Shown here one piece after another: positions 43,973 through 46,001 of a stretch of 64,000 bases of DNA. The stretch is taken from the NCBI RefSeq assembly GCF_044324785.1, contig NZ_CP172127.1. One strand, given 5' to 3'. Within the stretch, counting starts at the first letter, position 1; each line of letters opens with the position of its first letter. Under the pieces are notes generated by a model. The model saw only the letters and a list, made by a program, of their open reading frames with translations. It was not told where the DNA came from and did no database searches. The DNA is from Escherichia coli (GTDB lineage: Bacteria > Pseudomonadota > Gammaproteobacteria > Enterobacterales > Enterobacteriaceae). A program made the translations under genes and the position numbers.

Positions 43973-44314
43973 TCACCGTACCGTGGTGTTATGGCAGCGG
44001 CGCAGCAGACCTGTAGCCTGCCGCGCCCGTAAAATATCGACCGCACGAAGATAAGGCGTCTGTTCCTGCCAGCTAAATCCTTTCCTGTCGATACGGATCA
44101 ATTCGTACTTCTCCACCAAAAAATTGATGGCATCGACCAGAGTGATTCCGGCATCTATGTGTTCCTGAATCACCTTTTCATTGTTGAATGGTGTGTCATT
44201 AAGATTCAGCCCGTAGTGCTGCTCCAGCAGGCGGGCCAGTAATATTTGCCAGACCACGACGGGCGACAGATATGACGTCGTCGCCCGCAGCGTCGTTGCA
44301 GGAATAATTTTCAT
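43973..44314 (-). CDS. CbtA/YeeV/YpjF-family toxin (type IV TA, cytoskeleton-targeting)
   Basis: 113 aa with the family core ([22 protein letters not shown]...[15 protein letters not shown]...[15 protein letters not shown]). Confidence 0.85.
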
Positions 44315-44344
44315 AACGATGTTCCGTATTAAGGAGGTTAAAAC

Positions 44345-44680
44345 TCAGCGTTGAGTGGGATAAATAGCGATATAGACGTAACCACAGGAACCCAGCGTAT
44401 CGGCTTCGCAGGTTAGTCCTTTGGCGTATAGCGTGACGGTACGTTGTTGGCAGGGGGAGAGTTCACCGTCAGCCAGTTTCAGCTCCAGTTGTTTCATCAG
44501 CACCGGAAAAGCCTGGTCGATATGCAGCAGATCCGGGGAGCTGAATTTCCCGGTGATTGCGGCCCGATCAGCTAGGTAATGCAGGTTATGTCTTTCCTGT
44601 ACCAGTCGAGCAGTGAAGCGTGGTGTTACGGTACAGGGAAGCCCCCATTCTTGTTGCATGACCTTGTCCTTTTGCAGCAT
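44345..44680 (-). CDS. CbeA/YeeU/YfjZ-family antitoxin
   Basis: Core WGLPCTVTPRFTARLVQERHNLHYLADRA...LYAKGLTCEADTLGSCGYVYIAIYP; an alternative start at 44659 has RBS aagga. Confidence 0.85.
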   Translation of the reverse strand: MLQKDKVMQQEWGLPCTVTPRFTARLVQERHNLHYLADRAAITGKFSSPDLLHIDQAFPVLMKQLELKLADGELSPCQQRTVTLYAKGLTCEADTLGSCGYVYIAIYPTQR

Positions 44681-45153
44681 TACAGCCAGCCCCGTTCGGC
44701 AAAAGAGAGGACATCCCCCGCCCCAATAATGAAATGATCCAGCACCCTCACTTTCACCAAATCCAGTGTCTTAACAATATTCGTTGTAATAAGTCTGTCG
44801 GCCCGACTGGGTTTCGTCACGCCGGAGGGATGGTTATGCGCAAGGATCACTGCTGCGGCATTGTGCCGTAGCGCAGATTTCACAATCTCACGGGGATGTA
44901 CTTCTGTGCTGTTAATCGTGCCGAGAAATAGCGTTTCGTGTTCCAGCAGTCGGTTCTGGTTATCGAGGTAGAGCACAACAAACATTTCCCGCTCCTGTCG
45001 TGCCAGATGCAGTTGCAGCCAGGTTTTTGTGGAGTCAGAGGAAAGAAAAGATTCGCCAGGATTGCGTTGATATTTCTCCAGCAGACGCATCGCACGGCGG
45101 ATAGCGCGTTGTTCACTCACCGAAAATACCGGTGTTAGCATCAGTTCAGACAT
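44680..45153 (-). CDS. RadC-like JAB-domain protein (YeeS/YfjY/YkfG family)
   Basis: 157 aa; JAMM motif (HNHPSGVTKPSRAD); RBS aaggaaa; stop overlaps the antitoxin start. Confidence 0.85.
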   Translation of the reverse strand: MSELMLTPVFSVSEQRAIRRAMRLLEKYQRNPGESFLSSDSTKTWLQLHLARQEREMFVVLYLDNQNRLLEHETLFLGTINSTEVHPREIVKSALRHNAAAVILAHNHPSGVTKPSRADRLITTNIVKTLDLVKVRVLDHFIIGAGDVLSFAERGWL

Positions 45154-45182
45154 CGTATTTCCTTTACTATTAATAGCGTTGT

Positions 45183-46001
45183 TTATGAGGCCAGTTGCAA
45201 CATGTTTTCAGCCATCACCCACAGGGCGCGGTTGAGCCTGACATCACCGTCGATGCCTTTAATGGCGCGGGTGTGCGTGCGACCACCTTTTGCCGTGCGC
45301 CCGTTTAAACCACCTTTGATCAGGTTCTCCTGAATACGCTGGTAGGTCGTCCACAGATCGCCGGATTCATCCTGCCAGCGGCGGGGAGCCAGCAACTGGG
45401 ATTCCGTCACTGGCTGGTGCTCTTCGCCAAAGCGGTACGTCAGCGCCGCCTTTGCCAGCGCCTGTTGCGCAGGGGGTGGCAGCATCAGCGACTGCATGGC
45501 ATCGCGTTTCTCTTCAACCTGGTCAAAAACACTGAGGACTTCATAAGCGCCTTCAATCACTTTCTCCACCACATTGCCTTTATGCGGTACCCGTACTTCA
45601 CCAAACGACTCGCCGCAGACCAGTCCGTTACAACAAACAGATCGGAACAGCCCTGGCAGCATCTGATATGAACTGGAACCGTCATGGCTGTTGAGAAGAA
45701 TAATTTCCGGCACCTGGTTGCGATTGATCTGGTCTTCCCGGCGCAGACGCAGCATGTGTTTTGTATGCTCACGTTTACCCACATCACGAACGCGGGTCTG
45801 GCAGGCAAAGAAAGGATGAAATCCTTCACGCTGGAGGTTATCGAGCAGAGTAATGGTGGGAATATAGGTATAGCGTTCGCTGCGTGATTCGTGCTTATTT
45901 TCCCCAAATACGCTGGGGACATACTGCATCAGTTCGTCATGAGTTAATGGGCGATCGCGACGGATTTGATTTACGTGACCAAAGCGGCTGGCTAATTTCA
46001 T
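45183..46001 (-). CDS. DUF932-family protein (YfjQ/YafZ-like)
   Basis: 272 aa; length and context match K-12 prophage paralogues yfjQ/yafZ; RBS aagga. Confidence 0.75.
   Translation of the reverse strand: MKLASRFGHVNQIRRDRPLTHDELMQYVPSVFGENKHESRSERYTYIPTITLLDNLQREGFHPFFACQTRVRDVGKREHTKHMLRLRREDQINRNQVPEIILLNSHDGSSSYQMLPGLFRSVCCNGLVCGESFGEVRVPHKGNVVEKVIEGAYEVLSVFDQVEEKRDAMQSLMLPPPAQQALAKAALTYRFGEEHQPVTESQLLAPRRWQDESGDLWTTYQRIQENLIKGGLNGRTAKGGRTHTRAIKGIDGDVRLNRALWVMAENMLQLAS

Follow-up and report, generated by a model that had tools for sequence, protein, structure and literature searches.

A widespread, compact DUF932-RadC-CbeA-CbtA module without ArdB and DUF987 in an Escherichia coli leuX island

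Introduction

Why does a DUF932-RadC-CbeA-CbtA module in a restriction-rich Escherichia coli island lack both the anti-restriction gene and the DUF987 gene that usually accompany it? The module lies in a 64-kb stretch of E. coli DNA that was analyzed at its full length (the window), between fim/nan genes and tRNA-leuX, in synteny with strains 1500, AH65, and 1303. Defense cargo in the window comprises two type I restriction systems, McrBC, HNH enzymes, AbiE, and Dsr1. The initial annotation proposed that an island with this many restriction systems had lost its anti-restriction gene, and that the loss may not be coincidental. The module is an ordinary form, old and widespread, of an island backbone that is well known, and all four of its genes belong to well-known families.

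Gene content of the module

The compact block consists of four minus-strand genes.

45183-46001, minus strand: DUF932 gene (272 aa), first of the block; full-length match to Pfam PF06067 (E 3.6e-53)
44680-45153, minus strand: RadC-like JAB domain gene (157 aa); Pfam PF04002 (E 3.4e-44)
44345-44680, minus strand: CbeA/YeeU-family type IV antitoxin gene (111 aa); Pfam PF06154 (E 8.6e-48)
43973-44314, minus strand: CbtA-family toxin gene (113 aa); Pfam PF06755 (E 1.3e-56, positions 1-112 of 112)

Each gene is full length, and its domain match is complete. They are separated by 29 bp (DUF932/RadC), -1 bp (RadC/CbeA), and 30 bp (CbeA/CbtA). At the RadC/CbeA border (TAATG), the RadC stop codon and the first ATG of the antitoxin have 1 nt in common. 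An alternative in-frame ATG, 21 nt further down, is preceded by a better Shine-Dalgarno sequence (AAGGA, at a spacing of 7 nt). Neither antitoxin start leaves space for an extra gene. The PGAP annotation of strain 1500 gives the antitoxin identical coordinates.

The spacing suggests that DUF932, RadC, CbeA, and CbtA most likely form one operon, probably extending into the DUF4942 gene that follows. A promoter and terminator scan of 42900-47400 returned counts no higher than shuffled controls and thus no operon evidence, and a promoter-like site upstream of DUF932 was not above chance. The K-12 homologs yfjXY-ypjJ-yfjZF form one operon, and YfjY/LfgB was reported as a protease (PMC10846083).

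Window RadC aligns with a RadC homolog of known structure (PDB 2QLC, E 3.3e-27), and its JAMM motif (HxHx7Sx2D; HNHPSGVTKPSRAD) is intact at residue 106; the protein is probably a JAB-type metalloprotease. The toxin domain is complete and a CbeA domain gene lies just upstream on the same strand, as expected of the CbtA/CbeA family. From its identity to the K-12 toxins, CbtA is predicted to inhibit FtsZ and MreB polymerization, which the antitoxin would counteract without binding the toxin, and this type IV toxin-antitoxin pair would stabilize the element. PDB sequence searches with DUF932 and DUF4942 returned weak, short matches only (sugar epimerases, E 6e-4 over 60 aa; ribokinase, E 0.03), which are probably spurious and were not used. 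Literature searches on DUF987, DUF932, and DUF4942 returned nothing on function or on variants of the module.

Absence of ArdB and DUF987

In its order and orientation the block follows the canonical module, DUF932 through RadC, antitoxin, and toxin to DUF4942 on a single strand. Missing from it are ArdB, which would immediately precede RadC, and DUF987, which would separate RadC from the antitoxin. K-12 ArdB (YafX, YfjX) and DUF987 (YeeT, YkfH, YpjJ) queries were compared with the 64 kb by tblastn and gave no match (best E 0.46; ArdB alone over the whole window, best E 0.55). The YafX query is a true ArdB by its alignment to PDB 2WJ9 (E 3.5e-71) and to KlcA (2KMG, E 1.3e-23). Profile HMMs for ArdB and DUF987 were built from 64-65 homologs each and run at maximum sensitivity against all stop-to-stop segments of 15 aa or longer from the six reading frames. 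Neither family was detected in the window (best E 0.19 and 1.2), and the same run retrieved RadC, CbeA, CbtA, and DUF932 at E 1e-57 to 1e-173. The initial annotation, which had read both genes as missing, is thus borne out by the junctions, by tblastn, and by the six-frame HMMs. Its concern that a small anti-restriction ORF or remnant might be hidden in the sequence is answered by the same search, in which segments down to 15 aa gave no ArdB match.

Remnants or small ORFs of the DUF905 and YeeW families were sought in the window with tblastn and six-frame profile HMMs, and nothing was above chance. The YeeW-like gene that usually lies between CbtA and DUF4942 is therefore also missing from the window by its HMM. 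Other known anti-restriction families had no match in Pfam and/or PADLOC among ORFs of at least 100 aa between 28.6 and 63 kb.

Comparison with homologous modules

One genome per GTDB species was scanned with the antitoxin as anchor, which gave 80 loci; these are the loci closest to the window's antitoxin rather than a random sample, and they include a few duplicates. Neighboring ORFs were classified with purpose-built HMMs using HMM envelope coordinates. Counts cover the 68 modules, all from other Enterobacterales species, for which 2.5 kb or more of upstream sequence was available.

ArdB present, RadC present, DUF987 present: 49 of 68 modules
ArdB absent, RadC present, DUF987 present: 7 of 68 modules
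ArdB present, RadC present, DUF987 absent: 6 of 68 modules
ArdB absent, RadC present, DUF987 absent: 5 of 68 modules
ArdB present, RadC absent, DUF987 present: 1 of 68 modules

The canonical order DUF932-ArdB-RadC-DUF987-CbeA-CbtA is the majority order (49/68), and ArdB is directly preceded by DUF932 in about 40 modules. The window module is a minority form. Comparison with homologous modules thus upholds the expectation that both genes are usual. The possibility that they are missing from most modules anyway does not apply, with ArdB present in 56 and DUF987 in 57 of the 68.

The initial annotation had drawn this expectation from the K-12 prophage remnants, and its picture of them is mostly right. 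CP4-6 and CP4-57 carry both genes in the order ArdB-RadC-DUF987-antitoxin-toxin; CP4-44 has no ArdB, and DUF932 is not next to ArdB in K-12, where several genes separate the two. CP4-57 lfgABCDE (yfjX-yfjY-ypjJ-yfjZ-ypjF) and CP4-6 yafX-ykfG-ykfH-yafW-ykfI share with the window the order of RadC-like JAB, CbeA-family, and CbtA-family genes. Both islands, like the window, also hold DUF932, GTPase, WYL regulator, AlpA, and YfjJ/Gp2-like genes. Unlike them, the window has no ArdB before RadC and no DUF987 after it, and DUF932 abuts RadC. Identity to the CP4-57 and CP4-6 proteins is only 55% for RadC and only 43% for the GTPase and WYL proteins. Window DUF932 is 84% identical to K-12 YafZ, and CbtA is 57-77% identical to the K-12 toxins, with 77% to YkfI. 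CP4-44 (yeeS-yeeT-cbeA-cbtA-yeeW) resembles the window in lacking ArdB and in carrying the type IV pair CbtA/CbeA, but it retains DUF987 (yeeT) and yeeW and has flu-yeeR where DUF932 would be.

Lineage of the ArdB-less form

Window RadC is most similar to RadC of other ArdB-less modules in the survey (L081, 80%; L083, 78%; L011, L018, L084, and L071, 73-74%; L067, 68%; L073 and L063, 65%), and its identity to RadC of canonical surveyed modules is at most 61%. The same loci rank first with DUF932, at 85-90% identity. A simple neighbor-joining tree of 75 RadC sequences (156 columns) placed all 11 ArdB-less DUF932-adjacent modules in one clade with moderate support (bootstrap 107/200, 54%). Its members come from Escherichia, Citrobacter, Kosakonia, Enterobacter, Photorhabdus, Limnobaculum, and Entomohabitans, and its sister is an ArdB-positive module. 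DUF987 is patchy within this clade and so appears to have been repeatedly gained and lost.

The remaining ArdB-less cases (K-12 CP4-44, L040, L041, and L068) are dispersed within ArdB-positive clades. By their placement in the RadC tree they appear to be independent secondary losses, the CP4-44 loss included.

The compact junction was searched for in 5426 complete E. coli genomes with a 741-bp probe that runs from the 3' end of DUF932 through RadC into the 5' end of CbeA. It is present in 219, once per genome, at 97-99.7% identity. RefSeq annotation already shows exactly this arrangement in hundreds of genomes, Nissle 1917 and ATCC 25922 among them. At megablast sensitivity, none of the 5426 genomes holds a >95%-identical module with ArdB and DUF987 between the same flanks. 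Given its place in one RadC/DUF932 lineage that spans several genera, the ArdB-less state appears to be far older than the window's island.

Recent decay of the kind seen in cryptic prophages, with deletions in this strain or not long before it arose, would likewise leave a degraded remnant without ArdB and DUF987. CP4-44 offers a precedent, with a probable secondary loss and a RadC that nests among ArdB-positive modules, and a hypothetical gene next to the block is frameshifted in the window. Against this stand the intact length and domains of the four genes, the absence of any remnant of the missing ones, and a junction kept across 219 E. coli genomes and also in further genera (RadC 65-80% identical). 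Such recent decay is highly unlikely. The proposal that this island itself lost its anti-restriction gene does not hold up, given one RadC/DUF932 lineage that spans several genera and the 219 E. coli genomes. The compact form marks a distinct lineage, not decay.

We instead consider it likely that the block is a compact lineage of the conserved maintenance backbone of CP4-57-type tRNA-integrating islands of Enterobacterales. ArdB and DUF987 would be dispensable accessory genes of this backbone. One RadC/DUF932 lineage, today present in several genera, probably lost ArdB a single time at its base or never acquired it. The window's island would then have inherited the compact form with no loss of its own.

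Backbone and cargo in E. coli

Features around the block are as follows.

41620-43024, minus strand: AbiEii/AbiEi pair, carried as distal cargo by the same element; AbiEii E 8.4e-128, AbiEi E 5.3e-53 (Pfam and PADLOC)
43025-43882, minus strand: DUF4942 gene, about 90 bp past the toxin; Pfam PF13708 (E 1.2e-70)
46237-47191, minus strand: conserved gene for a hypothetical protein (317 aa in relatives), upstream of DUF932; frameshifted in the window
47784-51574: remaining conserved backbone, with Gp2/YfjJ-like and AlpA genes (plus strand), a hypothetical gene, and GTPase and WYL regulator genes (minus strand); Pfam
52060-62889: integrase-proximal cargo slot with a type I system (hsdR/M/S), Dsr1, and a hypothetical gene; PADLOC E values of 4.5e-274 for REase_I, 5.3e-192 for MTase_I, 2.4e-160 for Specificity_I, and 0 for Dsr1

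The conserved backbone encodes a WYL regulator, a GTPase, a hypothetical protein, AlpA, a Gp2/YfjJ-like protein, the 317-aa hypothetical protein, DUF932, RadC, CbeA, CbtA, and DUF4942. Its gene order is unchanged in strains 1500, Nissle 1917, Z1323CEC0015, N39, and AH65. Backbone and junction of the selC island (Nissle 1917 and ATCC 25922) and of the leuX islands (1500, Z1323CEC0015, N39, and AH65) are as in the window, at 97.8-99.7% DNA identity. Nissle 1917 differs from the window in its integration at selC and in a frameshifted DUF932. The relatives also differ in the cargo of the flanking slots, which includes an ABC-three-component system, BREX, other type I systems, and RelE/CopG. The backbone is flanked by two such cargo slots, with defense systems that differ by strain.

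Strain 1500, leuX: type I, Dsr1, and AbiE
Nissle 1917, selC: ABC-three-component system and a retron-type HNH/AAA pair; no restriction-modification system
Z1323CEC0015: type I and other systems
N39: BREX-1
AH65: type I system with a truncated hsdM

Two hypothetical genes of the compact backbone, at 46237-47191 (317 aa) and 48954-49739 (261 aa), are candidates for an unrecognized anti-restriction or anti-defense function that stands in for ArdB. Both are conserved on the compact backbone without a Pfam or PADLOC match, and the 317-aa gene occupies AT-rich DNA next to DUF932, on its upstream side. The 317-aa gene is intact in every E. coli relative examined, but in the window an additional C at 47059, compared with strain 1500, shifts its frame. 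ArdB-positive loci also encode distant relatives of the 317-aa protein, at a position ahead of the GTPase gene. Replacement of ArdB by either gene is quite unlikely, and dispensability of ArdB in the compact lineage is the preferred reading.

Relation to restriction systems

Proteins of the ArdB family are able to block every type I family of restriction systems in vivo (PMC3874165, PMC12707154), which makes it mechanistically reasonable that an element carrying a type I system would be selected to drop ArdB and spare its own cargo. The module-carrying element bears a type I system, and three of the five different cargo sets compared in E. coli include one. Within 8 kb on either side of the antitoxin, type I genes occur in 3 of 10 ArdB-negative and 6 of 49 ArdB-positive modules, a difference that is not significant (Fisher p = 0.17, relatedness uncorrected). 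Two of the ArdB-positive modules, L031 and L034, have both hsdM and hsdR within 8 kb. There is no exclusive relationship between ArdB and type I systems in these data. K-12 retains two ArdB homologs alongside EcoKI.

Counts of backbone-cargo junctions in E. coli also speak against selection for ArdB loss. The restriction-free Nissle 1917/ATCC 25922 type occurs in 79 genomes and the window type, which joins the backbone to type I hsdR, in 36. The most frequent E. coli setting of the ArdB-less backbone is thus restriction-free. In the window, moreover, the second type I system and McrBC sit on a different, older element. Loss of ArdB by selection to protect type I cargo is unlikely. The suggestion that a missing anti-restriction gene in a restriction-rich island is not coincidental finds no support in the varied cargo, in the p value of 0.17, in the older remnant next to the element, or in the ArdB-positive modules that adjoin type I systems too.

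A weak lineage-level association of ArdB absence with type I systems may exist. If a large survey corrected for relatedness confirmed that type I systems are somewhat overrepresented around ArdB-less backbones, this would inform how mobile elements balance anti-defense and defense genes. It is likewise improbable that the ArdB-less RadC/DUF932 lineage as a whole is specialized as a carrier of restriction and defense systems, with ArdB purged because it blunts type I systems of the same element. Such specialization would provide a rule that ties the anti-defense content of an element's backbone to its defense cargo.

Two elements in tandem at leuX

The restriction genes of the window are divided between two neighboring elements. 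Positions 41157-41441 align at 96.5% identity with the hsdR end of E. coli 1303 followed by an initial 18 nt of tRNA-Leu (the leuX 3' end); beyond them the homology ends. An att repeat was placed at this point because the homology stops there.

~41425-41441: partial leuX 3' end (att repeat), left end of the module-carrying element

The module-carrying element runs from ~41442 to past the end of the window, and its integrase and the intact leuX lie outside, as in strain 1500. The region at 28.6-41.4 kb, with one type I system, McrBC, and HNH genes, holds half of the window's restriction genes and is an older, neighboring leuX remnant. In E. coli 1303 and in 55 or more further genomes, only the nanS'-HNH-phosphorothioate-dependent endonuclease-McrCB-DUF4942-hsdMSR segment is present, right beside leuX.

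tRNA-leuX corresponds to hotspot #37, the most occupied defense island of E. coli (PMC12707154). This hotspot is tRNA-leuX-anchored, integrase-associated, and hypervariable, and it holds type I, BREX, phosphorothioate-related, and other systems (PMC12707154). The window is one instance of it without substantive difference, in which two elements are in tandem. Many restriction genes are found together because an element inserted at the leuX hotspot beside an older, restriction-rich remnant, and the pile-up of restriction systems thus reflects two tandem insertions at one hotspot. Such a crowd of restriction genes is expected at leuX whatever the module. The DUF4942 gene is also doubled in the window, as an 884-bp direct repeat at 34070-34953 and 42995-43878 with 95.5% DNA and 97% protein identity.

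The newer leuX-integrated element, which carries the compact DUF932-RadC-CbeA-CbtA module (minus strand, 43973–46001), adjoins an older, restriction-rich leuX remnant, and a partial copy of the leuX 3′ end defines the boundary between them. No tRNA genes were found in the window using ARAGORN.

Features of the two elements (window coordinates)
28.6–41.4 kb, older leuX remnant
34070–34953 and 42995–43878, 884-bp direct repeat, the two copies 95.5% identical at the DNA level
41425–41441, partial copy of the tRNA-leuX 3′ end (17/18 nt)
41.4 kb to past 64 kb, newer integrated element
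46190–46211, minus strand, perfect 10-bp inverted repeat (CTCCCGGTGA...TCACCGGGAG)
46237–47191, conserved 317-aa hypothetical gene immediately upstream of DUF932, frameshifted

Cargo was compared between the window (51575–62889 and 41442–43024) and loci L085 (Nissle 1917), L086, L088, and L089 (AH65) from E. coli relatives. The conserved genes around the module form a shared backbone with two cargo slots, one adjoining the WYL gene and the other following DUF4942. Slot contents differ by strain and include ABC-three-component, BREX-1, type I, Dsr1, AbiE, RelE/CopG, and retron-type HNH systems. With leuX and selC both in use as integration sites, the element acts as a modular carrier of defence systems. 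The 884-bp direct repeat covers two DUF4942 genes whose proteins are 97% identical, with one copy in the older remnant and the other in the newer element. A type I hsdMSR system, the leuX att repeat, and AbiE lie between the copies. Deletion, or an exchange of cargo, could occur through this repeat pair.

A YeeW-like gene is the third usual gene absent from the compact module. In many canonical modules it overlaps the CbtA stop and is followed by ~300 bp before DUF4942, whereas here only ~90 bp (43883–43972) separate CbtA from DUF4942. The frameshift in the 317-aa hypothetical is a 1-bp insertion, an extra C at 47059 relative to strain 1500, which has the same island at leuX, and other relatives; either the gene is a pseudogene here or the extra base is a sequencing error. 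It had no match in Pfam or PADLOC, and its C-terminus, judged by eye, looks like a ribbon-helix-helix. The inverted repeat lies just past its stop and ~190 bp upstream of DUF932, does not include a T-run, and may be a terminator or operator.

The AH65 type I cargo has a truncated hsdM (L089 25445–26155) with intact hsdS and hsdR, and DUF932 is annotated as frameshifted in Nissle 1917 (L085 20624–21438). These genes show decay of both cargo and backbone in relatives. The same island is also present in L087 (NZ_AP023207.1), a 93.8-kb record labelled "plasmid pMTY18781-2" that includes the chromosomal genes fimE, fimB, nanC, and nanM. Either a chromosomal fragment was misassembled or mislabelled in this record, or the record represents an unusual segment that was excised.
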